From an uncultured bacterium (GTDB lineage: Bacteria > Patescibacteriota > Patescibacteriia > CAIQCM01), in NCBI GenBank assembly GCA_963708045.1, contig OY970181.1, positions 67,740 through 131,739 on the forward strand: 64,000 nt of DNA, read 5' to 3'. Position 1 is the first letter of the stretch. Each line of letters starts with the position of its first letter. Positions 3,164-59,908 of this stretch are shown here, one piece after another. The position numbers and the translations under genes are program-made. Under the pieces are notes generated by a model that saw only the letters and a program-made list of their open reading frames with translations, was not told the origin of the DNA and searched no databases.

Positions 3164-3775
3164 CTAAAACCCCAACTTCTCTTTCACCAAAATTACCGTG
3201 ATCCGGCCGTCGGTCATGTCGGAAAAAGTGATCAGCATTTTCTTAAGGTCGCTCCCTGCGTTCCCCATAGCCTTTTGATGCTTGTCTTCCATTGGCAAAG
3301 AATATTCGCGCACGCGCTTGATGCCGTCTTCAAAAGCCGGCACGATCTTTTGGCAACCGACAACAAAAATAGCGTGCGGGGAAAGCATTGCAAAGGCGGG
3401 AATTTGCGAACCAGAGTACGAACCTTGAAAAAGGATACCGTCTTCCGAAAGCGCGTGGGCGCTTGCGAGATAATAACTCGCGGCGGACGATTGTTTGCGC
3501 AAATCCATTTGCTTGGCTTGGTCTTTTTCCGAAAAAATTTTATCTTTCCAATTAACCCAACCGTTTTTCCCCGACTTGAGCAAATCGGAAAACCCGATTT
3601 CTTCCAACGTCACCGAGCCGCCAGTCATTACGTCGGCGCCCGTTGGAATTATTTCTTTAAGTTTCGCGAGCGCTTCGGCGCGACTTGTGACGACCGCGAC
3701 GTTATATTTCTTCGCGGTCAAAGCGGCCGCCGTCTTGTTGATCGCCTCTTCCGAGGCAAGGGTGTCGTAAGACAT
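3164..3775 (-). CDS. LUD-domain (LutC/YkgG-like) protein
   Basis: The protein is about 200 aa. Its architecture resembles DUF162/LUD-domain proteins (MSYDTLASEEAINKTAAAL ... GADVMTGGSVTLEE). This is a family-level call from memory. Confidence 0.5.
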   Translation of the reverse strand: MSYDTLASEEAINKTAAALTAKKYNVAVVTSRAEALAKLKEIIPTGADVMTGGSVTLEEIGFSDLLKSGKNGWVNWKDKIFSEKDQAKQMDLRKQSSAASYYLASAHALSEDGILFQGSYSGSQIPAFAMLSPHAIFVVGCQKIVPAFEDGIKRVREYSLPMEDKHQKAMGNAGSDLKKMLITFSDMTDGRITVILVKEKLGF

Positions 3776-3791
3776 ATTTAAAAAATATTTA

Positions 3792-3986
3792 ATATCTAAT
3801 GTCTAATATCTAATCCGACGACAGAGCACCGCATCAAATCTGTCATTGCGAGGAGTGAGTGGTAACGAATGACGCGGCAATCTCGCGAATATTGCAACCA
3901 TGGTGATATTCCGATGAGATTGCCGCGCTACCGCTCGCAATGACATTAAAAAAACTAAACGCTATACGCTAAACCCTAAACGCTAG
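3792..3986. mobile_element. MITE-like element: heptamer-repeat TIR (atctaat x3) + inverted pair of 'tgtcattgcgag...gcggcaatctc' palindromic units + ccctaaa/cgctaaa heptamer tail
   Basis: Seen in sequence. The left arm is atctaatgtctaatatctaatccgacg. Unit A (3839-3890) and the reverse complement of unit B (3895-3950) are near-identical. The right flank is ctaaacgctatacgctaaaccctaaacgctag. Confidence 0.6.
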
Positions 3987-5266
3987 TGATGATGTTCTTC
4001 CCCACAATCGCAGCCGCCAAAATATGATTCTAATTCTTTACCTAAATCTTTTATTTTAACCATTTTGGCGACGCCCGAGGCGCGGTCTTTTATTTCAACG
4101 GCATCTTCCTTTAGAGTTTTTTCGGAAATAATAATGCGCTTGGGAATACCAATCAGATCGGCGTCGGCGAACTTCTCCCCCGCTCCGCGGTCTTCGCGAT
4201 CGTCATAGAGAACATCCAAGCCGGTTTGCATTAACGCACCATAAAGCGACATCGCTTCTTCTCGCACTTTTTCATCTTTGCTTTTTATTTCAATCAAATG
4301 CAAATCAAATGGCGTAATCGCAGCCGGCCACTTCAAACCATTAGCATCGTTATAAATTTCGGCAATCGTGCCCATCACGCGTGACGGACCAATGCCATAG
4401 CAACCCATCATTACCGGCTGCAACTTACCGGCTTCGTCGGGATATTTAAAACCAAACGGCTCGGTATATTTAGTCTTTAACTTAAAGATATTACCGACTT
4501 CAATTGCTTTTCCTTCGGCAATGACGCCGTCTTTGCATTTCGGACATTTGTCGTCAGCCGCGACTTCGGTAATTTCTTTGTTCTGAGCGTAACGGCACGA
4601 CTTGCAGTAAAAAATCAAATCCTCGCCCGACTCGGTCAGCACCTGAAATTCGTGCGAATATTTTGCAAATGATCCGCCCGACGCTTCAACTAAATACGCA
4701 TCAAGACCGCAGCGCTTGTAAACATTATTGTAAGCAAGAATTGCGCGTTCGTAGAAAGCGTCAAGATCGGCTTCGTCGCGATGAAAGCTGTAAAGATCCT
4801 TCATTGAAAATTCGCGACCGCGAAGCAAACCCGCCTTGGCGCGCGCTTCATTTCTAAATTTATTTTGAATCTGGTAAACCGCGAGCGGCAGGTCTTTGTA
4901 CGACTTAACAAACTTTTGCACGAGCGGGGTGATAATTTCTTCGTGCGTCCAACCAAGCCCGTATTCTTTGTCGCCGTGGCCCTTTAAGTGAAAGAAAACG
5001 TCCTCATCCCAGCGACCAGAGATTTTCCAAGGCTCTTTAGGGGTCAAAGCCGGCAAAGCAACTTCTTCACCGCCAAGCGCGTTCATTTCCTCGCGAATAA
5101 TATTTTTTATTTTGTCGTGAACACGGAGCCCGAGCGGCAAAAAGCTGTACACACCAGCCGTAAGCTGATCAACAAACCCAGCCTTGGTTAAAAGCTCGGC
5201 ATTTTTTGATTCTAATTCAGCAGAAACGTTCTTTACGGTTTTTCCAAAAAGTTTTGAGTACAACAT
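3983..5266 (-). CDS. proS: Prolyl-tRNA synthetase (short form, no editing domain)
   Basis: Class II aaRS motifs are present, the anticodon-binding domain is C-terminal, and a Cys/His-rich zinc tail (CDCGEEHHH) closes the protein. Length is 427 aa. Confidence 0.85.
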   Translation of the reverse strand: MLYSKLFGKTVKNVSAELESKNAELLTKAGFVDQLTAGVYSFLPLGLRVHDKIKNIIREEMNALGGEEVALPALTPKEPWKISGRWDEDVFFHLKGHGDKEYGLGWTHEEIITPLVQKFVKSYKDLPLAVYQIQNKFRNEARAKAGLLRGREFSMKDLYSFHRDEADLDAFYERAILAYNNVYKRCGLDAYLVEASGGSFAKYSHEFQVLTESGEDLIFYCKSCRYAQNKEITEVAADDKCPKCKDGVIAEGKAIEVGNIFKLKTKYTEPFGFKYPDEAGKLQPVMMGCYGIGPSRVMGTIAEIYNDANGLKWPAAITPFDLHLIEIKSKDEKVREEAMSLYGALMQTGLDVLYDDREDRGAGEKFADADLIGIPKRIIISEKTLKEDAVEIKDRASGVAKMVKIKDLGKELESYFGGCDCGEEHHH

Positions 5267-5270
5267 TTTT

Positions 5271-5382
5271 TAGGGGTTAGGGTTTAGGGGCTAGGGGTTA
5301 GTTTATGAAACATGAAACACACAGCACGAAGCATTATTACCACCCCAATATCCATTGGAGTGGCTAGATGTTTCATAGTTCA
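5271..5382. repeat. Intergenic repeat: ccctaaa-type heptamer array (reverse orientation) followed by an atgaaac-heptamer inverted-repeat hairpin
   Basis: taggggttagggtttaggggctaggggttag, then tttatgaaacatgaaacac ... gatgtttcatagttcat. Confidence 0.6.
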
Positions 5383-11419: not shown

Positions 11420-12115
11420 TTACCAGCCTTTTTTGATAATTCCATTTTCCGCGGCTTTGACCTGAGCTTCTTGTTTAGAACTACCTTCGCCGTCGGCAAC
11501 AAATTCTTCGCCCAAATACACGCCAACTTTAAACCATTTATTATGATCCGGACCTTTTTCTTCAAGAACTTTATAGGACGGCGTAACGCCAGCCGTGTCT
11601 TGCGCCGCTTCCTGAAAGCGACTCTTGGGATCCAAATACAAACGATGTTCCAAAATATACGGCAACTTGACGAGGACGCGCTCGGTGCAGAATTTTTTTA
11701 CGGCATCATATCCCTTGTCTAAGTATATCGCACCAACGATCGCTTCAAAAGCGTTGGCTAAAATATATTGTCGCGCTTTGGTTCCCGCATCTTTTGATTC
11801 ACCACGCGAAAGATAAAGATAATCTTCAACGCCCAAGTCTTTGCAGATTCCCGAAAGCATTACCGCATTTACAAGCGCGGCGCGCCAATTTGTTAGATCG
11901 CCTTCGGGGTTAGGATAATTATTGTGAAGGTGTTCGGTTACAACAAGTTCAACGACCGCGTCGCCTAAAAATTCCAATCGTTCATTGTGACCAAGCCTAA
12001 AATCGGGATGCTCGTTAAGGTAGGAGCGATGAACTAGCGCTTGGGTTAAAAAATCAGGATTAGTAAACTTGACACCGAGTGTTTCTTCTAACCCGGAGAC
12101 ATCTTTGTCGGCCAT
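11420..12115 (-). CDS. rnc: Ribonuclease III
   Basis: The RNase III signature ERLEFLGDAV is present, with a C-terminal dsRBD. Confidence 0.92.
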   Translation of the reverse strand: MADKDVSGLEETLGVKFTNPDFLTQALVHRSYLNEHPDFRLGHNERLEFLGDAVVELVVTEHLHNNYPNPEGDLTNWRAALVNAVMLSGICKDLGVEDYLYLSRGESKDAGTKARQYILANAFEAIVGAIYLDKGYDAVKKFCTERVLVKLPYILEHRLYLDPKSRFQEAAQDTAGVTPSYKVLEEKGPDHNKWFKVGVYLGEEFVADGEGSSKQEAQVKAAENGIIKKGW

Positions 12116-12124
12116 ATCGGTAAA

Positions 12125-12208
12125 ATATCTAATGTCTAATATCTAACGTCTAATGAACGCGCCGAGGCCGTCCTTAGATTAGAAATTAAACATTAGATAT
12201 TGAAATTA
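12125..12208. mobile_element. Short MITE-like element with atctaat heptamer TIRs
   Basis: Left arm atatctaatgtctaatatctaacgtctaat, core gaacgcgccgaggccgtcc, right arm ttagattagaaattaaacattagatattgaaatt (inverted). Confidence 0.6.
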
Positions 12209-12712: not shown

Positions 12713-12796
12713 GGTATTAGGTTTCGGGTTTCAGGTGTTAGGTTCTGTAATGACCTCTAACCTAAAACCTTGAACCTTGAACCTTAAACCTTAAAC
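12713..12796. mobile_element. MITE-like element with aggtttc/aaccttg heptamer TIRs between nusB and rpmF
   Basis: gtattaggtttcgggtttcaggtgttaggtt ... taacctaaaaccttgaaccttgaaccttaaaccttaaacc. Confidence 0.6.
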
Positions 12797-12994
12797 CTAT
12801 TTAGATGTTTTCTTGACCGCCTTAACTTTGGCCGCGGCGCGACCTTGATAAGTGCCACAAAAAGCGCAAGCATAATGCGAGCGAACGGGCTTTTTGCATT
12901 TGGCGCAAATCGTTAATTGCGTCGGCTTAAGCGCAAAATGCGAAGCGCGACGACGTTTGTGCGATGATGTGCGGCGATGGCCGGGTAATCCCAT
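12797..12994 (-). CDS. rpmF: 50S ribosomal protein L32
   Basis: A 65-aa basic protein with a CAKCKKPVRSHYACAFCGTY zinc ribbon. Confidence 0.85.
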   Translation of the reverse strand: MGLPGHRRTSSHKRRRASHFALKPTQLTICAKCKKPVRSHYACAFCGTYQGRAAAKVKAVKKTSK

Positions 12995-15629: not shown

Positions 15630-18094
15630 TTAGACAATGGTGACCGTGGACAGCGCGTCGTTTTCTTCCTTAAAGCGCATAATGCGAACGCCTTGGGTGG
15701 CGCGGCCGATCGTCCGAATCTCGCCCAAAGCCAAACGAATAACTTGGCCATGATTGGAGATCGCAACGATATCGCGTTCATCTTTGGCCGAAACAACAAA
15801 GCCGGTTACGATCTCGCCCGTCTTGGCCGTGACTTCGGCCGTCTTAATGCCGGAGCCGCCGCGCCCTTGCAAACGATATTCTTTCAAGTTAGTGCGTTTG
15901 CCAAAACCGTGCGCCATGACGACCAAAAGTTCCAGCAAATTCTTTTTTACTTCTTCGGAAGAAACAACGTCCATGCCGACAATGTAGTCACCGCGCTTTA
16001 ACTTCATTCCGCGGACGCCCGAAGCGGTACGTCCCATAGAACGAACATCTTTTTCTTCAAAGCGGATGGACATTCCTTTGCCGGTAATGATGACGATTTC
16101 GTCTTTGCCGGTTGAAGGACGAACATATTCAAGTGAATCCTGTTCGTGGAGTTTAAGCGCGATCAAGCCAGAGCGGCGAACTTGGGCAAATTCAGCGATC
16201 TCGGTTTTCTTAATCACACCCTCTTTTGTAATCATCACAAGATACTTAGCGTCGGGCATATCCGAAATCGGCAAAACAGCCGTAACTTTTTCGCTTGGCG
16301 CAAGCTGGAGGAAATTAACCAGTGCCTGTCCCTTGGCCGTTCGCGAGGCCGGCGGAATATCATATGCCTTAAGTTGGAAGACGCGGCCGCGCGACGTAAA
16401 GAAGAGAACATCGGCGTGCGTGCTCGTTGTAAACAACTGTTCAACCATATCTTCTTCTTTGGTCGCAACGCCGATCACGCCCTTGCCGCCGCGCGATTGG
16501 GCGTGGAACGTGTCCGGCGGCACGCGTTTTACATAGCCATCACCGGTAATAATGACAATCGTGGACTCATCAGGAATAACGTCTTCCATTGAAAATTCTT
16601 TAACCCCATGCGCGACGACTTGCGTCCGGCGCTCGTCGCCAAATTTGTCGCGAAGCCCAATGACCTCGTCGCGGACGATTTGCAAAATGCGTTTGGGCGA
16701 CGCCAAAATCGCCATCAGTTCTTTGATAATCTTTTTCTTTTCTTCAAGTTCGGTTTCAACCTTAATTCGTTCCAGGTTGGCAAGCTGCTGCAAGCGCATT
16801 TCCAAAATCGCAACCGTCTGCGCGTCCGAAAGCTTAAACTGCTTGATCAAATTAATCTTGGCTTCGTCTTTGTCCGTAGATTTTTTGATCGTCGCAATGA
16901 CCTTGTCAATATGAAGAATGGCAATGGATAATCCTTCCAAAATATGAGCCCGTTCTTTGGCGCGCATAAGGTCAAATTCGGTGCGCTTTCGGACAACGAC
17001 TTCGCGATGCTTAATATATTCTTCTAACAAAGTTTTTAAATTAAGCACGCGCGGCTGGATACCATCCACGAGCGACAGCATATTCACATGGAAAGTTTCC
17101 TGCAGCTGCGTCTGTTGGAACAAACGATTTAAAACTTTCTTTGGGTACGCGTCTTTTTTAAGTTCAATTACAACGCGCACGCCGTCCTTGTTGGACTCGT
17201 CGCGAATATCGCGGATGCCGTCAATTTTTTTGTCGCGAACCAGATCGGCGATTTTTTCCAAAAGCGTCGCTTTGTTTACCTGATAAGGAATTTCATTGAC
17301 GATGATCTTAAAAGCGCCGGCGCTATCTTCAACGATTTCCGTTTTGGCGCGCAAGTAATCGGCCCGCGACCAGTAACATAAGCCGAGAGAATTTCTTTCT
17401 TGTTATAAATAATGCCGCCGGTCGGAAAATCAGGTCCTTGAACAATATTGGTTAAATCTTCAACCGTTGAATCTGGCTCGTCAATAACTTTGACAATCGC
17501 GTTAGTAATTTCTGTCAGGTTGTGCGGCGGAATGTTCGTGGCCATGCCGACGGCAATGCCGACCGTGCCGTTAAGAAGCAAGTTGGGCAATTTTCCCGGA
17601 AACACCGACGGCTCTTTGTGCGAACCATCATAGTTCGGAATAAACGGAACCGTTTCTTTATCAAGATCAAAAAGAAGTTCTTCGGCGATCGGCGAAAGTT
17701 TGGCTTCGGTATAACGCATGGCCGCGGCGCCATCGCCGTCCATTGAGCCAAAGTTTCCTTGGCCATTCACGAGCGGATAGCGCATAGAGAAATCCTGCGC
17801 CATGCGCACCATTGATTCGTAAACCGCGGAGTCGCCGTGCGGATGGTATTTACCAAGCACTTCGCCGACCACAGTCGCCGATTTTTTGAATTTAGCGTTA
17901 GCGCGAAGGCCGATCGCCCACATCGCATAAAGAATGCGGCGATGCACTGGTTTCATGCCGTCTCTGGAGTCGGGAAGGGCGCGAGCAACAATGACTGACA
18001 TTGCGTAGTCTAGATACGACTCCTGCATTTCCGTCGTAATCTGCCGTTCGTTTATCTTACCGATAAGAAATTCTTTTGGTTGTTTATCACTCAT
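15630..18094 (-). CDS. gyrA: DNA gyrase subunit A, interrupted by an apparent -1/+1 frameshift near 17355-17375
   Basis: The N-terminal ORF (17276..18094) has the GyrA active-site region and ends in an out-of-frame tail (...[14 protein letters not shown]). The C-terminal ORF (15630..17354) begins [10 protein letters not shown], whose homologous sequence is normally contiguous with the N-terminal part. The +1 frame across the junction reads ...RAKTEIVED. Confidence 0.85.
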
Positions 18095-31268: not shown

Positions 31269-32033
31269 TTATTCACTCGCCAGCCAAGCCAGATTAAAAA
31301 GACCGCGCATTGTTTGCGCAAAAGATTCGTGTTCAATAATCGCCCCAACGATTCCTTTATTATAAGAAAGAAAAGCGACGGTTTTTCCAAAAATGACAAC
31401 TTCCCCTTCAAAGGGGTATTTTTGTTTTGAAACGCGGCGGCGCTCCCACCCGACTTTATTTACCAAATTCTCCAATAGTTTTTTATTAAGCTCGTCCGAG
31501 CAAGTATAAAGAACGCGGCCAGAAACATTATAAAGATTTAAATTTTTATAATGTTCGCGCATATTTTCCGACGGGGCGGCGGCAGAGAAAGCGTCCATAT
31601 CCAAAGCGTTTAAAATCTCTTCGTGACGATTTTTGTAAAGAATTTCGCGCATTACCGCAAGACCATCAACGCCTTCATAATAGCGCACCGCCGGCCGCGC
31701 GGGCGAACCTTTTACGATCGCCTCCAGTTCAGGAAGCGCCGAGGTAAGCTTTTCGCGGCGCGCGACCAAAGTTTCGTTTTCTTTTTCTATTTTAGAAACA
31801 AGCAATGTCGGCGGCTCAGCGCAAAACTGTTTGCTTCCAGCGCGTTCCACGCCACTCATAAGCCCGCGACTCATTAAACTTTCGGCAATTAAATAGGTCG
31901 TACCACGATTAATGCCGGACTTTCGCGCGATCTGCACTGCCGTACCGCCGCCAAGCTCCAGCGAGGCCAAATAAACTTTTGCCTCTTTTTCGGAAAGACC
32001 GGCGCCATGCAGCGCTTCAACAAGTCTCACCAT
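31269..32033 (-). CDS. TrmB-family transcriptional regulator
   Basis: N-terminal wHTH (EKEAKVYLASLELGGGTAVQIARKSGINRGTTY) plus a C-terminal TrmB-like domain. Confidence 0.65.
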   Translation of the reverse strand: MVRLVEALHGAGLSEKEAKVYLASLELGGGTAVQIARKSGINRGTTYLIAESLMSRGLMSGVERAGSKQFCAEPPTLLVSKIEKENETLVARREKLTSALPELEAIVKGSPARPAVRYYEGVDGLAVMREILYKNRHEEILNALDMDAFSAAAPSENMREHYKNLNLYNVSGRVLYTCSDELNKKLLENLVNKVGWERRRVSKQKYPFEGEVVIFGKTVAFLSYNKGIVGAIIEHESFAQTMRGLFNLAWLASE

Positions 32034-32045
32034 ATTTTTTATAAT

Positions 32046-32504
32046 TTAATAAGTCACGATCCGTTCGGTAGAATTTTTTCCGTGATTAAAATTCATCCAA
32101 GCGGCGCGTTTGGGAATTATTTTTTTCACTAAATCAGCCCACTCAATAACCGTTACCGTTTCTGGGTCTTCAAGTTTTTCACCAAGACCAATATTGATGA
32201 GCTCGCGTTCGTTCTTTATGCGATAAGCGTCAACGTGGCAAATAGCACGTAGCACGTGGCTCGTCGCACGTGGTTTTATATTGTAACATTTCATTAAAAG
32301 AAACGTTGGACTTTGGACAACTTGTTTAATGCCCAAAGCTTTTGCCAAACCTTTAACAAACGCAGTTTTTCCGGAACCAAGATCGCCGGTTAATGCCAAA
32401 ACCTCGCCGCCTTTTAAGGTCTTCGCAAACCTCGCCGCAAAAACTTGCATTTCTTTTGGAGATTTTATGATGATTTTTTTATCCATGTTATTTTCTACGT
32501 GCAA
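32046..32504 (-). CDS. tsaE: tRNA threonylcarbamoyladenosine biosynthesis protein TsaE, carrying an in-frame heptamer-repeat insertion (PRATSHVLRAI)
   Basis: P-loop GDLGSGKT. The insert is encoded by cacgtgc/gacgagc/cacgtgc/tacgtgc at 32222-32258. Confidence 0.8.
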   Translation of the reverse strand: MHVENNMDKKIIIKSPKEMQVFAARFAKTLKGGEVLALTGDLGSGKTAFVKGLAKALGIKQVVQSPTFLLMKCYNIKPRATSHVLRAICHVDAYRIKNERELINIGLGEKLEDPETVTVIEWADLVKKIIPKRAAWMNFNHGKNSTERIVTY

Positions 32505-32525
32505 CAGGCAACGTGCTACGCGCTG

Positions 32526-33542
32526 CTAAACCAGCTCCCAATTAGGATCGGCTTTGGCTTTGTTCCATAAAGTAAAATCCTTTTTGGCGGCGTGAAAATA
32601 TCCTGCTGTCCCGATCATCACCGCGTTGTCGGTGGTATATTTTCGCTGCGGCAAACGCAAAGTAATGCCCGGCAATTCTTTAACGCGCGCTTCAAGCGAC
32701 ATTCGTAAAAATTCGTTGGCAATAACTCCCCCGCCCACGATAATCGTTTTGACTTTAAATTTTTTTGCGGCGCGAATCGTTTTCTCTACCAATACTTCAA
32801 CAATCGCCGCTTGCACCGACGCGGCCATATCGTTTTTTAAATTTTTAATCCCCGATTTTGCGTCGCGAACACTATAAAGCACCGCTGTTTTAAGTCCGGC
32901 AAAACTAAATTCAAAATTATCTTCGCTAAGCATTGGCCGCGGCAATTTAAACGCTTGCGGATTCCCTTTTTCCGCGGCTTTGGCAATAGCGGGACCGCCC
33001 GGATAACCAAGGCCAAGCATCTGCGCTGTTTTGTCAAAGCATTCGCCGGCAGCATCGTCGCGTGTTCGCCCGATAAGTTTATATTTTCCGTGTCCGCGGA
33101 GGAGTAAAAGCTCGGTGTGTCCGCCCGAAACAATCAACCCAAGCGCCGGAAACTGCAATTCTTCCTTTTCATTAATAAGCGAAGAATATAAATGACCTTC
33201 AATATGATTAACCCGGACAAGCGGAATATCCCAAGCGTAGGAAAGGGTTTTTGCCGTTTCCAAACCAACCATCAATGACGAAAAAAGCCCCGGCCCTCCG
33301 GTCGCGGCAATAACATCAACTTTTGGTTTTATTTTAAAATCGCCGAGAAGCGTTTTAAGAAGCGGAATAATAACGCCAACATGTTCGCGCGCCGCAATTT
33401 CTGGAACCACCCCGCCGGTTAACGCGTGAATTTTCATCTGGGTTGCAACGAGCGATTCAATTTCTTTAACGCGCCCGCCATTTCCCTCCACCAAAGCAAC
33501 CGCGGTTTCGTCACACGATGTTTCTATCCCCAAAATTCTCAT
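32526..33542 (-). CDS. tsaD: tRNA N6-adenosine threonylcarbamoyltransferase TsaD
   Basis: MRILGIETSCDETAVALV with the Kae1/TsaD metal-binding signatures. Length is 338 aa. Confidence 0.92.
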   Translation of the reverse strand: MRILGIETSCDETAVALVEGNGGRVKEIESLVATQMKIHALTGGVVPEIAAREHVGVIIPLLKTLLGDFKIKPKVDVIAATGGPGLFSSLMVGLETAKTLSYAWDIPLVRVNHIEGHLYSSLINEKEELQFPALGLIVSGGHTELLLLRGHGKYKLIGRTRDDAAGECFDKTAQMLGLGYPGGPAIAKAAEKGNPQAFKLPRPMLSEDNFEFSFAGLKTAVLYSVRDAKSGIKNLKNDMAASVQAAIVEVLVEKTIRAAKKFKVKTIIVGGGVIANEFLRMSLEARVKELPGITLRLPQRKYTTDNAVMIGTAGYFHAAKKDFTLWNKAKADPNWELV

Positions 33543-33675: not shown

Positions 33676-33993
33676 CTACTTTTTGTGCGAGATTCGGTAA
33701 CGAAACTCCGCAAACCAGCCTGGAGCGATCGTGCCGATACACAAGGTAATCGGAAACACAAAGGTCCCCACAATTGACGCCGCGAGAAGGATCTTTTCGG
33801 CGCGCGATTTGGGAAGACGTTTTTCGCGCCACATTCTTACCAAGTCGTAGATGACCGAAATGACCACAACAAACACGAACAAGTACAAGACGCCGATAAT
33901 AAACTGAGAAATGAACCTTCTATGCATTTTTAGTCCTTTCCCAAAGGTACGGTTGTCACGCAAAATAATAGCTCCAGCCGCACGTTTTGTCAA
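33676..33993 (-). CDS. Small membrane protein (hypothetical)
   Basis: A 105-aa ORF with two TM helices. The start is uncertain. Confidence 0.45.
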   Translation of the reverse strand: MTKRAAGAIILRDNRTFGKGLKMHRRFISQFIIGVLYLFVFVVVISVIYDLVRMWREKRLPKSRAEKILLAASIVGTFVFPITLCIGTIAPGWFAEFRYRISHKK

Positions 33994-34080
33994 CGGACAG
34001 GACTCGGCCTAATTGCCTTTTTAAAAACGTTGATATAAGATGCGGGCAGCACATTTTATCAACTTTTTGGAGGTTTAACA

Positions 34081-34886
34081 TGCCCGACGAACATCAATTG
34101 ATGCCAATCGGCCGGGCGCGTTTAATCGCCCTCGGCAGCGAAACTGGACGACTTGGCGAACCAACAAAGATGCCTGGTCCCTCTTTCGGCATATCGGCCA
34201 CGCACTGCATACGCGGAAAAGTTCTTGCCGCCGACCCGACGTCCGTCTGCGCCCATTGCTACGCTCTCACCAACTATTATCTGACCAAAGACGAGGTCCT
34301 AATTGCGCACAAACGACGGTTTGCCGGGCTTACGCATCCAGAATGGGTGCCGGCCATGGTGGCGCTAATTTTGCACGAGACCACAAACGAGTTTGGGAAA
34401 TATTTCCGTTGGCACGACTCTGGCGACCTCCAAGGTATTTGGCACCTCTTAAACATCGTCAAGGTCTGCATAGAGACGCCGCGAGTAAGGCACTGGCTTC
34501 CGACCCACGAGCCGAACATGGTCGCTGATTATCTCAAGCTCGTCCATTACGGTGTCCACCCAGCGTTTCCGGAAAACCTCTGCCTTCGTATTAGCGCCGA
34601 CTACATTGGGAAGCCGCCAAAAAAAATCGCAGGTCTGGAAATGATCCCAACGCACACGGCGCATCGCGGACACGGAAAACAATACCGCGTTAAGGTGTCC
34701 GACCGTCTCGGCGATTCGTTTGAGTGCGACTCCTACACGCGCGCCAAAAAAAAGGGCACCGCTGGTTTTTGCGGCGACTGTCGCGCCTGTTGGAACAACC
34801 GCATAAAAAACGTTTCGTTTCCGGTTCACGGAGAAAAATGGGACAAATATCAGCTTAGGTTGTTTCCGCTGTCCCCAACCAGATAA
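34081..34886 (+). CDS. Cys-rich hypothetical protein (CX2C and CX2CX2C motifs), possibly phage-associated family
   Basis: Starts at MPDEHQLMPIG inside ORF 33987..34886. Carries CAHCYA, CGDCRAC and WHDSGD. GC is about 55%. Resemblance to a phage 'gp88-like' family is from memory and unverified. Confidence 0.55.
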
Positions 34887-43777: not shown

Positions 43778-43813
43778 CTTCGCCGTCACTCTTAGAACCG
43801 AGCTGAGCTCGGG

Positions 43814-43888
43814 TAGCCCCAACCGGATTCGAACCGGTGTACCCAGAATGAAAATCTGGTGTCCTAGGCCGGACTAGACGATGGGGCC
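43814..43888 (-). tRNA. tRNA-Glu (anticodon TTC)
   Basis: The minus-strand fold ggccccatcgtctagtccggcctaggacaccagattttcattctgggtacaccggttcgaatccggttggggcta has anticodon loop ttTTCat and T-loop ttcgaat. Confidence 0.85.
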
Positions 43889-43893
43889 TTATT

Positions 43894-43980
43894 GGCACGT
43901 GGCACGTGGCTCGTGGCTTTTGGCAAATGGACTCCGCCTTATACCGTACGTTCTCTGCCGGTTTTGCTACGTGCCATGTG
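43894..43980. repeat. cacgtgg-heptamer inverted-repeat element
   Basis: ggcacgtggcacgtggctcgtggc ... gctacgtgccatgtgctatatgctatgtgctatta. Confidence 0.6.
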
Positions 43981-44085
43981 CTATATGCTATGTGCTATTA
44001 GCCAACGAAGGGTATTCTTACATAAACTAAAAGATATTTCAAGAGGTGATCCGCGCCAATGATATTTAATGAAATAATTTGCTTT

Positions 44086-47619: not shown

Positions 47620-47681
47620 TTTTGAAATGTTTGCGTGCGTTCGCGCGCGGGGTTATATTTAGAGGGCGACATAATTTTTAA

Positions 47682-47760
47682 ATGAAACATAAAGCATAAA
47701 ACACGAAGCACTCTTGCGTCCCCGCGGGACGTCCGGATGCTTCATGGTTCATGCTTCATG
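47682..47760. repeat. atgaaac-heptamer inverted-repeat element in nrdD 5' region
   Basis: aatgaaacataaagcataaaacacgaagca ... ccccgcggg ... gcttcatggttcatgcttcatg. Confidence 0.6.
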
Positions 47761-47770
47761 CCAAATACAT

Positions 47771-49921
47771 ATGACCGAACTTTTAGTAGTAAAACGAGAC
47801 GGCGAAAAAATTCCGTTTGATAAAGAATTTATCGTGAGCGCCGTTACCAAAGCCGCCGAAGCAACAAACGAGTTTGGACCGACCGAAGCGCGTAAGATTG
47901 CCGAGATGGCCGCCCATTTTATTGCTAAATCTAAAAAAATGGCCGAAACGATTGCTGTTGAAGAAATCCAGGACATTGTTGAATTTACTATAATGAGCTC
48001 TGGGCACTTTAAAACCGCCCGCGCTTACATTGTTTACCGCGAACACCGCGCCCAATCCCGCGCCGCCGGCGCCGTGGCGGTTGAAGTTGAAAAGACGATT
48101 AATGAATATTTGCAACAATCCGACTGGCGCGTCCATGAAAACGCCAACCAAAGCTATTCCTTGGGCGGCATGATTCTTAATACTTCTGGCAAGCTGACCG
48201 CTAATTACTGGTTACATCACGTTTATCCGCGCGAAGTCCGCGAAGCACATCTTGAGGGTGATTTTCACATCCATGATCTTTCTATGTTCTCCGGCTATTG
48301 CGCTGGCTGGTCACTGCGACAACTCTTAGAGGAAGGCTTTAACGGCGTTCCGGGCAAAGTTGAATCCGCTCCGCCAAAACACTTAGAAACAGCTGTCGCC
48401 CAAATGGTCAACTTCCTTGGCACTTTGCAAAACGAATGGGCTGGCGCGCAAGCTTTCTCATCTTTTGACACGCTCCTCGCGCCGCTTATTAAAAAAGATA
48501 ATTTGGATTATGACCGCGTTAAGCAGTCGGTTCAACAATTTGTCTTTAACCTTAATGTTCCGTCCCGCTGGGGCACTCAGACGCCATTTACCAATATTAC
48601 GCTTGATTGGGTCTGTCCCGACGACCTAAAGCCGCAACATCCCAAAATTGGTGGTGTTGAAATGCCTTTCACCTACAGCGACTGCCAAAAAGAAATGGAT
48701 ATGCTGAACAAGGCATATATTGAGGTTATGACTGCTGGCGATTATCGCGGCCGCATTTTTACCTTTCCTATTCCAACCTACAACATCACAAAAGATTTTA
48801 ATTGGGACGATGAAAAAGTTAAGCCATTGTTTGAAATGACTGCCAAGTTTGGCACGCCCTACTTCCAAAACTTCATCAATTCAAATTTAAACCCCTCGGA
48901 TGTGCGTTCTATGTGCTGTCGCCTGCAGTTAGACCTGAGACAACTCCGCGCCAAGGGTGGTGGCCTGTTCGGTTCTGGCGAAATGACCGGCTCGGTCGGC
49001 GTTGTTACTATTAATATGCCACGCATCGGCTACCTTTCGCGCACGGAAGCGGAATTCTTTGAACGTCTCGGACGGCTTATGGAGATTGCCAAAGAATCGT
49101 TGGAAATAAAGCGCAACGTTGTAACCGACAGCATTGAACGCGGGCTATTACCATTTACCAAGCGCTATTTACCATCCCTGCACAACCATTTTTCAACAAT
49201 CGGGATAAATGGAATGAACGAAGCTTGTTTAAACTTCCTTGGCAAAGACATTTCAACGTCAGAAGGTAAAGAATTCGCCTTACGCGTTATGGAGTTTATG
49301 CGTAATCGCCTGACCGACTTCCAAGAAAAAACCACCCACTTCTATAATCTGGAAGCAACGCCGGGCGAAGGAATTACCCACCGTTTTGCCAAAGAGGATA
49401 AAGTTCGTTTCCCGGGTATTATTCAGGGCGGCGTTCATGACGCGCCTTACTACACCAATTCCACTCACCTACCAGTTGATCACACGAGCGACCCGCTTGC
49501 AGCATTGGATCACCAAGACGAACTGCAAACTAAATACACTGGCGGCACCGTGCTCCACCTCTTTATGGGCGAACGCGTGACTGACTGGGAAACCTGCCGC
49601 GACTTTGTAAAACGCGTTGCCGAAAATTACCGCCTCCCCTATTTCACCATTACTCCAACCTTTAGCATTTGTCCGACGCATGGTTATCAAAACGGCGAGG
49701 TTCCTGTCTGTGGCGTATGCGGAACGAAGAACGAAATTTGGTCGCGTATTGTCGGCTACTACCGCCCGACCGAGGAATGGAATCACGCAAAAAAGAGCGA
49801 GTACGCCGAACGCGTTGAATACACCATTCCCGCCGCAATCGCTTATGAATGCGAAACTGCTCCTGTCGCTTCCGTTGTTTCTTCCGAATCTGTCAGCGTT
49901 CCGACACAAAGCAACATATAA
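47771..49921 (+). CDS. nrdD: Anaerobic ribonucleoside-triphosphate reductase (class III)
   Basis: An N-terminal ATP-cone, the C-terminal zinc ribbon CPTHGYQNGEVPVCGVCG and the glycyl-radical motif RIVGYYRP. Confidence 0.9.
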   Translation: MTELLVVKRDGEKIPFDKEFIVSAVTKAAEATNEFGPTEARKIAEMAAHFIAKSKKMAETIAVEEIQDIVEFTIMSSGHFKTARAYIVYREHRAQSRAAGAVAVEVEKTINEYLQQSDWRVHENANQSYSLGGMILNTSGKLTANYWLHHVYPREVREAHLEGDFHIHDLSMFSGYCAGWSLRQLLEEGFNGVPGKVESAPPKHLETAVAQMVNFLGTLQNEWAGAQAFSSFDTLLAPLIKKDNLDYDRVKQSVQQFVFNLNVPSRWGTQTPFTNITLDWVCPDDLKPQHPKIGGVEMPFTYSDCQKEMDMLNKAYIEVMTAGDYRGRIFTFPIPTYNITKDFNWDDEKVKPLFEMTAKFGTPYFQNFINSNLNPSDVRSMCCRLQLDLRQLRAKGGGLFGSGEMTGSVGVVTINMPRIGYLSRTEAEFFERLGRLMEIAKESLEIKRNVVTDSIERGLLPFTKRYLPSLHNHFSTIGINGMNEACLNFLGKDISTSEGKEFALRVMEFMRNRLTDFQEKTTHFYNLEATPGEGITHRFAKEDKVRFPGIIQGGVHDAPYYTNSTHLPVDHTSDPLAALDHQDELQTKYTGGTVLHLFMGERVTDWETCRDFVKRVAENYRLPYFTITPTFSICPTHGYQNGEVPVCGVCGTKNEIWSRIVGYYRPTEEWNHAKKSEYAERVEYTIPAAIAYECETAPVASVVSSESVSVPTQSNI

Positions 49922-50023
49922 CTCGTTCAAAAAACTTTTAACTATTAACTGTTAACTTTTAGTCCTGCTAAGCGGCTAAAAGCAGACCCTAACAGTTATA
50001 AAGTTAAAAGTTAACAGTTCAAA

Positions 50024-50713: not shown

Positions 50714-50730
50714 ATTTTAAATTTTAAAAA

Positions 50731-51032
50731 TATCTAATATCTAATCCGACGAAACATCATCATCAAAGATTGTCAGCTTTTTCGGCGTCATCCCGAGCGA
50801 AGCGAGGGAACTCAAAGTCTCTAGGCAAGCTCCGTGATTCCTCGCCCTGGACAAACCGACCTCACAGGCTCGGAATGACGGCGGGGTGTTTGACGTCATC
50901 CCGAAGAGCCGAAGCGATGAGGGAACTCAACGTCTCTAAGTCGTCTGCGAGATCCCTCGCCTTGGACAAACCGACCTTACAGGCTCGGAATGACGGCGAA
51001 CGGATTAGACATTAGGTATTAGATATTAGGTA
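50731..51032. mobile_element. MITE-like element (about 300 bp): atctaat-heptamer terminal inverted repeats flanking two tandem about 100-bp imperfect palindromes of the 'gtcatcccgagcgaagcgaggg...gctcggaatgac' type
   Basis: Left TIR tatctaatatctaatccgacg; right TIR cggattagacattaggtattagatattaggta. A single-unit copy in inverted orientation sits at 58585-58759. Confidence 0.75.
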
Positions 51033-51084
51033 TTCATCGGGTGACTATTGTTCACGACAATGATCCGTTATAGAATATAAGAAT

Positions 51085-58788: not shown

Positions 58789-59832
58789 TTAGTCTACGGA
58801 AACACTCCACTCATTTTCCATCTCAACAATCTTTCCTTTAACAACAAACCCTGCGGCTTTGCGGTGGCCACCGCCGCCCCAGCGGAGTGCTTCGGCTGCG
58901 ACGTCAATGTCTTCGCGTGCTGTGCGCAAGCTCCCCTTTATCGTTCCGTCGTCGTTTTCGCGCAAAACCAAAACCGTTCGCGCTGGGAGGACACTGTTTA
59001 AAAAATTAGAAAGACCACCAAGGGCGTCTTCGTCTATGCAAAGCAAAGCCGTTTCTTCGGCGTAAAGAACGGTGGAGGCGCGACCAAGATCGGTGTTGTA
59101 CTTTAATCGCTCTAGCGCTTTACCCCAAAGCGAGAGTGATTCTATGGATTTATTTCTAACAACCAGACGGGAAACAAAATGGCGGTCGGCGCCGAGCGCT
59201 TCTAGGCGCGACGCGACGGCGAGCGATTCGGCAGTTGTCGCCGGATTAAAAAACATCATCGTATCGTGAATAACGCCGGCGAGCATATTTGTTGCCGCGT
59301 CCTCGGAAGCGGTATGACCAAAACATTCGTAGACGCCAAAAATAATTTCGGTCGTAGAAGCGGCCGTCGGAATTACCAAATTCACATCGCCAAAAAATTC
59401 GTTAGCGCCGTGATGGTCAATATTAACAATAAACGGACGCGGTGAAAGCGAAGGAATCACCTTATCCATACCGGCGAACTTTAAATCGCTCGCGTCCAAA
59501 ACCACGATAGCGTCAGCGTTAGAAAAGACGCCAAGGTCGGCGGTAAACTTTTTGGAATTTGGCAATTCCACAAGCGACAATGGAACCGGATCGGACGAAA
59601 AACAAGCCACAGTTTTGCCTCGTTTTTCTAAAAGGTCGGCGAGCGCCAGCGCCGCGCCAAGCGTGTCCGCATCAGGCCGACGATGTGAAACCGTAACAAT
59701 TCGGTTGGCTTTGTTAAGCGCCGAAACGACCGCGTTAAATTGAATCGTGTTTGAAGTCATCCAGACACAATACGGCCATATTTTTGCCTTGTCAATGGGC
59801 GGCCTTTGGCCGTAAAATGAAACATGAAGCAC
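58789..59832 (-). CDS. nrnA: DHH/DHHA1 phosphoesterase (NrnA-like oligoribonuclease/pAp phosphatase); likely start at 59757
   Basis: The DHH motif region (VSHRRPDADTLGAA) and the C-terminal DHHA1 GGGH motif are present. The N-terminal extension of the ORF overlaps a repeat element. Confidence 0.75.
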   Translation of the reverse strand: MLHVSFYGQRPPIDKAKIWPYCVWMTSNTIQFNAVVSALNKANRIVTVSHRRPDADTLGAALALADLLEKRGKTVACFSSDPVPLSLVELPNSKKFTADLGVFSNADAIVVLDASDLKFAGMDKVIPSLSPRPFIVNIDHHGANEFFGDVNLVIPTAASTTEIIFGVYECFGHTASEDAATNMLAGVIHDTMMFFNPATTAESLAVASRLEALGADRHFVSRLVVRNKSIESLSLWGKALERLKYNTDLGRASTVLYAEETALLCIDEDALGGLSNFLNSVLPARTVLVLRENDDGTIKGSLRTAREDIDVAAEALRWGGGGHRKAAGFVVKGKIVEMENEWSVSVD

Positions 59833-59902
59833 GCAACATGAAACATCACCATCCCGCTTCGCGGGGTTAATGTGTTTTATGCTTCATGTTTCATGCTTCA
59901 TA
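59816..59902. repeat. atgaaac-heptamer inverted-repeat element between nrnA and smc
   Basis: aaatgaaacatgaagcacgcaacatgaaacat ... cccgcttcgcgggg ... tgcttcatgtttcatgcttcat. Confidence 0.6.
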
Positions 59903-59908
59903 CCTTAT

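Follow-up and report, generated by a model that had tools for sequence, protein, structure and literature searches.

Tandem repeats whose unit is not a multiple of three nucleotides are a standing frameshift hazard, and selection normally bars them from essential genes. How, then, does an array of heptamers come to lie in frame within tsaE, a gene of the N6-threonylcarbamoyladenosine (t6A) tRNA modification pathway? The question is raised by a 64,000-nt stretch of DNA from an uncultured bacterium of the Patescibacteriota (assembly GCA_963708045.1, contig OY970181.1, positions 67,740 to 131,739), hereafter called the window. The answer that we favor, with somewhat more belief than doubt, is that the tsaE repeat is a coding heptamer minisatellite, kept in a permissive loop of the protein by a lineage-wide process that generates and homogenizes such repeats and mainly populates intergenic spacers.

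The host gene is tsaE, as an earlier reading made from the letters of this DNA alone (the sequence-only reading) had proposed. Its product scores 118 bits against Pfam family PF02367 (cut-off 26.6; E = 3.3e-34), contains the P-loop GxxGxGKT, SPTF, and HxDxYR motifs that mark membership of the TsaE family, and has the residues that are invariant among 36 orthologues (G37, G39, K40, T41, S59, P60, T61, F62, H84, D86, Y88, and R89); matches to TsaE entries in the PDB reach E = 3e-19. The mechanically predicted open reading frame (ORF) begins at TTG 32504. Because orthologues keep the N-terminus MxKKIIIKS, we place the start at ATG 32486 instead, and the spacer between tsaD and tsaE is therefore 39 nt long. 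One database call of the gene gives a protein of 134 aa, compared to the 146 aa backed by orthologues. The repeat is not an assembly artefact, since independent records and two further samples carry it. NCBI, Logan, and ENA sources all list a 100%-identical protein, P0001, for which the gene call was made on a 4.8-kb Logan contig; a 100%-identical copy is also found on a 1.19-Mb contig, and L164 and L165, from two further JGI samples, carry a near-identical tsaE array. The protein is patescibacterial, with relatives labelled Falkowbacteria, Buchananbacteria, Komeilibacteria, and Parcubacteria.

On the coding strand (32273-32233), the array reads CCACGTG CGACGAG CCACGTG CTACGTG CTATTTG CCACGT, flanked by ...AAAA and TGAC, and encodes P72-RATSHVLRAICH-V85 (in context, K71-PRATSHVLRAICHV-D86). 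Tandem Repeats Finder reports a core at 32243-32271 with a period of 7, 4.1 copies, and 81% matches. The last unit supplies the codons of the conserved Cys-His-Val, and its inclusion extends the array to 32233-32273. The sequence-only reading had read the heptamers, their translation, and their in-frame placement correctly, and its position of 32222-32258 was shifted by 11-15 nt. The five to six degenerate units would be read through all three phases in turn, which would yield the 7-residue-periodic peptide PRATSHV-LRAICHV.

The repeat-encoded segment is extra relative to canonical TsaE, as had also been proposed. We counted 15 residues between Y68 and H84 in the window protein, versus 7 in the Thermotoga maritima structure 6N9A_E, 8 in the Bacillus subtilis structure 5NP9, and a median of 11 in non-periodic patescibacterial loops; in the alignment, the excess of 7-8 residues over the solved structures is unmatched exactly at the array. 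An AlphaFold model built with the 36 orthologues as input has a mean predicted local distance difference test (pLDDT) score of 93.6. In this model, residues 70-80 are coil (pLDDT ~74) between confident strands at 65-69 and 81-86. The coil between confident strands, together with the unmatched residues, indicates that the segment is a tolerated loop extension. Between two beta-strands of a TsaE that is otherwise canonical, the peptide would form a surface loop that is extended and poorly ordered.

The array belongs to a large class. At a strict threshold, 13 period-7 arrays were detected in the window versus none in 20 shuffles, and among periods of 3 to 21, those not divisible by 7 gave 0-1 arrays each; a laxer threshold raised the period-7 count to 16. 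After correction of two mechanical ORF starts, 15 of these 16 arrays fall in the approximately 16% of the window that is non-coding, leaving the tsaE array as the only coding copy: the arrays at 47737 and 59879, seemingly inside ORFs, actually lie upstream of the true nrdD and smc starts. Tandem Repeats Finder detected no heptamer array in the window tsaD. Most arrays are 2-12 nt from a start or stop codon, and many are inverted pairs, forming hairpins that fill spacers and often abut start codons. The same bias extends to related patescibacterial loci, where 1.05 Mb of DNA contained 111 period-7 arrays compared to at most 7 for any period that is not a multiple of 7.

Heptameric simple sequence repeats (SSRs) are over-represented in many bacteria, mostly with about four units and in inverted pairs, and polymerase slippage has been proposed as their origin (PMC4692102); for the excess itself, that paper cites Mrazek et al. 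(2007). Those of Xanthomonas mostly have four units and often form convergent inverted pairs (PMC4692102). The cyanobacterial short tandemly repeated repetitive (STRR) sequences and the Xanthomonas GGGAATC arrays resemble the window arrays in their 7-nt units, about four per array, in their excess over other periods, in their mostly intergenic location, in convergent inverted pairs that give stem-loops, and in the turnover of sequence and length between relatives. However, theirs are one or a few G-rich, quadruplex-prone units reported from intergenic DNA, whereas the units of the window are diverse, range from AT- to GC-rich, and evolve concertedly, and arrays here also lie in frame in conserved housekeeping genes, at the same loop across the phylum. 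The tsaE copy itself shows the head-to-tail 7-nt copies and the period-7 excess of the STRR type, and departs from it in not being intergenic. We found no description in the literature of heptamer arrays in the Candidate Phyla Radiation/Patescibacteria.

Recurrence at the same loop was examined in 140 distinct patescibacterial tsaE loop sequences, with a loop called periodic at a lag-7 self-identity of at least 0.5. By this measure, 41 of the 140 are heptamer-periodic and 20 reach an identity of at least 0.6; the other lags from 3 to 12 gave at most 9 loops each, and control segments of the same gene gave none. Periodic loops have a median length of 15 residues versus 11 for non-periodic ones. 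Loop lengths have modes near 8, 15-16, and 22-24; a quantization in steps of 7 aa is suggestive only, being confounded by non-periodic insertions. The periodicity is kept while the unit changes: it is CAGAAAT in L080, CAAGAAT in L024, ACCTACA in L075, TCCGAAA in L036, CAACGAT in L010, AGAACCA in L091, and TCGTTCA, in four perfect copies, in L161. The sequence-only reading had named orthologues with the same residues and no nucleotide periodicity as the observation that would count against it. Among the orthologues, the close ones with the same residues remain periodic, and others differ in their residues yet carry heptamer arrays.

In the close clade (TsaE 65-90% identical), arrays anchored on the Cys-His codons all fall in one register. 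Their units form series of single substitutions, one running CCATGGT, TCATGGT, TCATCGT/TCATTGT, TCAAGGT, CCAAGAA and another CCATGGA, CCACGTA, CCACGTG, CTACGTG, CTACGCG, CTACAAC. A given substitution turns up in several units together, the hallmark of a resident array that evolves concertedly. A parallel pattern is seen in TsaD: in 12 other genomes (L161 at 782-822, L078, L036, L014, L007, L009, L051, L076, L111, L023, L024, and L044), in-frame heptamer arrays lie at three to four recurrent variable loops, for example in place of KGNPQAFK before LPRPM and after NHIEGH. Separately, the tsaE loop array of L087 (~1865-1900) contains a 30-nt palindromic insert, CGCGAAAGCTTCGCG, with the peptide HYAKASRGRP, that is absent from the near-identical L091, and a similar AYAKALAD insert is found in the tsaE loop of L021. 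These inserts suggest that this loop is also the target of small elements of a second kind.

The sequence-only reading had raised the domestication of an inserted repeat. This proved too narrow: the array is one of a genome- and phylum-wide class, and in this clade it evolved in place, with no recent arrival. According to the minisatellite interpretation that we favor, a process in Patescibacteria would build and homogenize short (21-45 nt) period-7 arrays wherever constraint is weak, namely in intergenic spacers, often as inverted pairs and as hairpins by start codons, and in tolerant loops of housekeeping proteins, TsaE and TsaD among them. Within coding sequences, an array would survive only if it is free of stops and its net length can be divided by three. 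An array would remain at its site over the long term while single substitutions spread across its units by slippage, unequal exchange, or template switching. We infer slippage with a preference for 7 nt as the mutational mechanism, with template switching for the inverted arms, and a loop peptide without function of its own.

The best-surviving alternative concerns the second array that the sequence-only reading had noted at the tsaE-tsaD junction. That array is real, although it lies at 32497-32524 rather than 32481-32520 and the junction is 39 rather than 21 nt long. It begins 1 nt past the tsaD stop, with 10 nt between 32497 and the tsaE ATG (32486-32484), and reads AGCGCGT AGCACGT TGCCTGT TGCACGT in the sense direction (ACGTGCA ACAGGCA ACGTGCT ACGCGCT on the plus strand). 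The spacer and loop arrays are inverted complements of each other, a relationship not described in the earlier reading: the 28-nt arms are 225 nt apart and 82% complementary, matching at 23 of 28 positions as DNA and at 26 of 28 as RNA once G-U pairs are counted. Within 31900-32700, inverted repeats score at most 15.5, versus 9.5 ± 1.0 (maximum 12.5) in 100 shuffles and 6.5 for a direct-orientation control of the arm comparison. The stem appears in both the minimum free energy and the centroid RNA folds (z = -5.3), and the same stem is predicted in L083 with arms of 42 nt (z = -2.7).

These arrays could form a cis-regulatory long-range stem of approximately 26 bp in the tsaD-tsaE mRNA. Such a stem would enclose the tsaE start and the first 71 codons and hide the ribosome landing site; a ribosome finishing tsaD would melt it, giving translational coupling, or an RNase III site could arise that sets the TsaE:TsaD ratio. 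The two 90% relatives (L164 and L165) keep 23 of 28 pairs, and in the window two derived C-to-T changes in the loop arm turn A-C mismatches into A-U pairs, raising the pairing from 23/28 to 26/28. The genome also encodes an RNase III with a double-stranded-RNA-binding domain, whose gene has its own heptamer-arm hairpin leader. That leader, a near-perfect hairpin, resembles the self-cleaved rnc leader of Escherichia coli. A precedent exists in Haemophilus influenzae, where the (ATCTTTC)n heptamer tract of hmw1A is an arm of a hairpin in the 5' untranslated region that is cut by RNase III (PMC12721329). As in hmw1A, heptamer arrays of the window form arms of long hairpins directly upstream of genes, the RNase III gene included, in a genome that encodes the enzyme. 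The hmw1A tract, however, has at least 11 perfect units, is demonstrably phase-variable, and precedes a surface adhesin gene, whereas the window arrays are short and degenerate, no length variation was seen in them, and in the tsaE case one arm lies inside the coding sequence.

The pairing is not conserved. It was found only in the window, L164/L165, and L083/L084, and is absent in L161, L087, L091, L085, L092, L133, and the distant orthologues. In the syntenic relative L161 (81%), the spacer array is of the CGTTTAG family and the loop array is TCGTTCA, and the two do not pair; L087 and L091 keep a GGCACGT-type spacer array opposite an AGAACCA loop array, so that the partner arm is missing; and L085 has a PRAT-type loop array and no spacer at all. 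When an upstream partner arm was searched for in every orthologue, including distant ones with loop arrays, scores outside the window lineage equalled those of direct-repeat controls. The complementarity most likely follows from the membership of both arrays in the near-palindromic GGCACGT family, whose palindromic CACGTG core makes any one array largely complementary to any other. Moreover, the two C-to-T changes agree with a general A+T shift of the window at synonymous sites. Across 26 heptamer hairpins, there was no excess of G-U pairs over A-C mismatches (P = 0.27), hence no sign of strand-specific RNA selection, and sense and antisense folding energies of the hairpins differed in both directions. 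We consider a regulatory tsaD-tsaE stem unlikely on balance.

Also to be weighed is a broader proposal: that a self-homogenizing, genome-wide heptamer system in Patescibacteria builds the long hairpins that lie just ahead of start codons and tRNA 5' ends, by a few bases, and has colonized loops of the essential t6A genes. The hairpins would then be candidate modules for processing by RNase III or for stability, in genomes where Shine-Dalgarno signals are scarce, and in this genome the spacer and loop copies would pair as a 26-bp stem, through which tsaE expression would depend on translation of tsaD or on cleavage by RNase III. We find this proposal quite doubtful.

A further alternative is that a small dispersed mobile repeat entered tsaE by in-frame insertion or conversion, a GGCACGT/GGCTCGT copy having been written antisense into the tolerant loop. 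Rickettsia palindromic elements offer a model: in the summary that PMC10969869 gives of Ogata et al. (2000 and 2002), they lie in frame in protein-coding genes and are the classical case of repeats tolerated in housekeeping genes. Both systems place repeated DNA in frame in essential metabolic or housekeeping genes of a reduced genome, at positions compatible with the fold, and the 7-8 residues that the window TsaE has in excess of 6N9A_E and 5NP9 do lie at a tolerant position. The Rickettsia elements are nevertheless palindromes of approximately 150 bp from discrete mobile families, as opposed to a 41-nt tandem array that seems to evolve in place.

Several observations speak for exchange between loci. 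The window holds four copies of the GGCACGT/GGCTCGT family (at 32243, 32497, 43890, and 43969), the latter two in a hairpin adjoining the tRNA-Glu gene (43812-43888, minus strand); the antisense of the tsaE array is identical to 43895-43914 at 19 of 20 positions, including the GCTCGT variant unit. Families recur at non-orthologous sites of relatives, the window array at 3954-3986 matching the tsaD-tsaE spacer of L161, and loop arrays have families in common with other arrays of their own genome in L036, L086, L090, L133, and L161. In the close clade, same-family arrays are about five-fold commoner within a genome than in unrelated loci (63 versus 12 per Mb; only n = 10); this version of the statistic replaced an unrestricted one that was swamped by A-rich units. 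A composite hairpin, consisting of a (CATGAAR)n distal arm, a GC-rich apical mini-hairpin, a (YTTCATG)n proximal arm, and about 6-8 nt before the ATG, precedes nrdD and smc in the window and rpiB in L084 (2670-2765), L090 (2013-2110), and L001 (135-235). The separate 30-nt palindromic insert in the loop array of L087 and not of L091 likewise suits insertion. Nonetheless, the tsaE loop site is occupied in every close relative, and the common start, end, and register of these arrays, with their single-base steps, argue for descent in place rather than repeated insertion. Among the ORFs adjoining arrays there was no transposase, RAYT, or reverse transcriptase, and no target-site duplications were seen. 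Convergence is also possible, as stop-free, loop-compatible units are a restricted set: CTACAAG arrays occur in TsaD of the distant L078. Room is left for ectopic conversion or mobility between loci, but insertion or conversion by a dispersed repeat as the origin of the tsaE array appears decidedly improbable.

Least credible, and in our judgement very improbable indeed, is phase variation, which the sequence-only reading had floated: slippage by one or two heptamers would toggle tsaE and so modulate t6A modification, yet the window tract is degenerate (at most about two perfect units, 81% matches overall), the 90% relatives L164 and L165 have the same unit number in both arrays, 90%-identity clusters contain no 7-aa length variants, and tsaE is intact in all 160 loci fetched. 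Classical coding contingency repeats include CTCTT in the opa genes of Neisseria and the tetranucleotide tracts of Haemophilus. The tsaE array shares with them a tandem unit that is not divisible by three within a reading frame, and some orthologues (L161, L024, and L036) have four perfect units. Contingency repeats, however, are long perfect tracts in surface or host-interaction genes that vary between sibling cells, none of which is seen for the tsaE array: three perfect units are not reached by any of the window arrays, and tsaE is a housekeeping gene. The only truncated candidate, P0138, a 79-aa cluster member starting inside the array, is a contig end and not a frameshift allele; the contigs start 2-66 nt upstream, with DNA identical to L090. 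Two independent Logan contigs (L162 and L163) start 2-66 nt upstream of the tsaE loop array, which suggests that heptamer repeats can break short-read assemblies at such sites.

The minisatellite interpretation is itself not free of difficulties. Neutral slippage leaves unexplained the uniform array length of 4-6 units, the rarity of perfect tracts, and the close abutment of arrays to start codons. The composite hairpin is nearly identical upstream of rpiB in L084 and L090, its distal arm being identical across 29 nt, in genomes whose TsaE proteins are approximately 66-74% identical to that of the window (each compared with the window protein, not with each other); this conservation suggests that at least the intergenic hairpins are selected. 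Selection or templated correction could account for the better pairing that the loop-arm C-to-T changes bring. Finally, a mechanism that favors 7 nt is something that we infer.

Table 1. Coordinates of the heptamer arrays, hairpins, and genes discussed, by position in the window
Feature	Position	Strand	Description
Single ATTAGAT-family array	3783..3815	minus	Ends 8 nt upstream of the start of a LUD-domain gene (3164-3775)
CTAAACG-family array	3954..3986		Abuts the stop of a class II aminoacyl-tRNA synthetase gene (3983-5266, minus)
TTTAGGG-family array	5269..5301		Same synthetase gene (3983-5266), 3 nt upstream of its start
ATTAGAT-family heptamer-arm hairpin	12120..12200	minus	31 Watson-Crick and 2 G-U pairs; directly precedes the gene for RNase III (11420-12115, minus)
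Heptamer-arm hairpin, AAGGTTT / GAAACCT	12719..12801	minus	Intergenic, between the L32 and NusB genes
tsaE coding sequence	32046..32486	minus	146 aa, ATG at 32486; from Pfam, orthologue N-terminus, and AlphaFold
Coding heptamer array in tsaE	32233..32273	minus	About 5.9 degenerate units encoding P72-V85; from sequence, Tandem Repeats Finder core, and register in common with orthologue arrays
Heptamer array filling the tsaD-tsaE spacer	32497..32524	minus	Inverted complement of the coding array; from inverted-repeat search, RNA folding, and shuffles
tsaD coding sequence	32526..33542	minus	Directly upstream of tsaE; Pfam TsaD E = 5e-86; stop at 32526-32528
GGCACGT/GGCTCGT-family hairpin	43890..43999		Arms 43890-43925 and 43969-43999; 4 nt upstream of tRNA-Glu; same family as both tsaE arrays
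Composite hairpin before nrdD	47681..47770	plus	CATGAAR-type distal arm, GC-rich apical mini-hairpin, ATGCTTC-type proximal arm, 8 nt, ATG at 47771
Heptamer-arm hairpin, AACTTTT / AAAAGTT	49932..50023	plus	Fills the spacer from nrdD to a radical-SAM gene
Heptamer-arm hairpin, TAGAGAT / ATCTCAA	51512..51597	plus	Intergenic, from an Hsp20 gene to the next gene
Composite hairpin before smc, second CATGAAR copy	59815..59908	plus	Apex reads ccccGCGAAGCgggg on the minus strand; 6-7 nt from the end of the proximal arm to ATG 59909

Beyond the arrays, an Rfam scan of the window returned three tRNAs and no other known RNA family. Other explanations of the intergenic arrays were tried and set aside. HutP-like UAG-N4 sites, or units that place a stop in all three frames, fit ATTAGAT, TTTAGGG, and TAGAGAT and fail for GGCACGT, CATGAAR, and AACTTTT; as promoters, the proximal arms leave no space for -10 and -35 elements plus a leader, and they contain no consistent hexamers. 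Discrete unit families were not recovered by single-linkage at one mismatch, which chained nearly all units together. The arrays at the two ends of the class II synthetase gene are partly complementary by eye, making a 5'-3' pairing across the whole gene possible. Their CTAAACG and TTTAGGG types match the plant telomere repeat by coincidence. In the 3776-3982 spacer, a large palindrome (~3820-3950) unrelated to the heptamers lies between two heptamer arrays, AATGTCATTGCGAGCGGTAGCGCGGCAATCTC ... GAGATTGCCGCG ... CTCGCAATGACA. Inverted ATTAGAT-family arrays (50729-51034) flank an 81-codon ORF (50770-51015) without a family match, which may be the loop of a large hairpin or an insert rather than a gene.

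The gyrA gene is broken into two overlapping minus-strand ORFs, 17276-18094 and 15630-17354, by an apparent 1-nt loss near ATTACTTGCGCGCC (17276-17354); this split may reflect an error of assembly, a pseudogene, or programmed frameshifting. Just upstream of tsaD, on the opposite strand, an ORF of the phage GP88 family (33987-34886; PF17338, E = 1e-18) may be a phage-derived gene or part of a small island.

In many Patescibacteria, then, a heptamer array holds the same tsaE loop, and several tsaD loops, with its periodicity kept as its sequence changes. There are practical consequences for annotation and comparison: beside arrays, mechanically predicted ORF starts and one database call of a gene are wrongly placed, and alignments of variable loops at arrays do not fall under ordinary substitution models. 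If the neutral reading is true, an unusually strong, lineage-wide 7-nt repeat process shapes both the intergenic architecture and the protein loops of these reduced genomes. If the hairpins are functional, they would give a first entry point to the signals of mRNA processing in a phylum where experimental genetics hardly exists.

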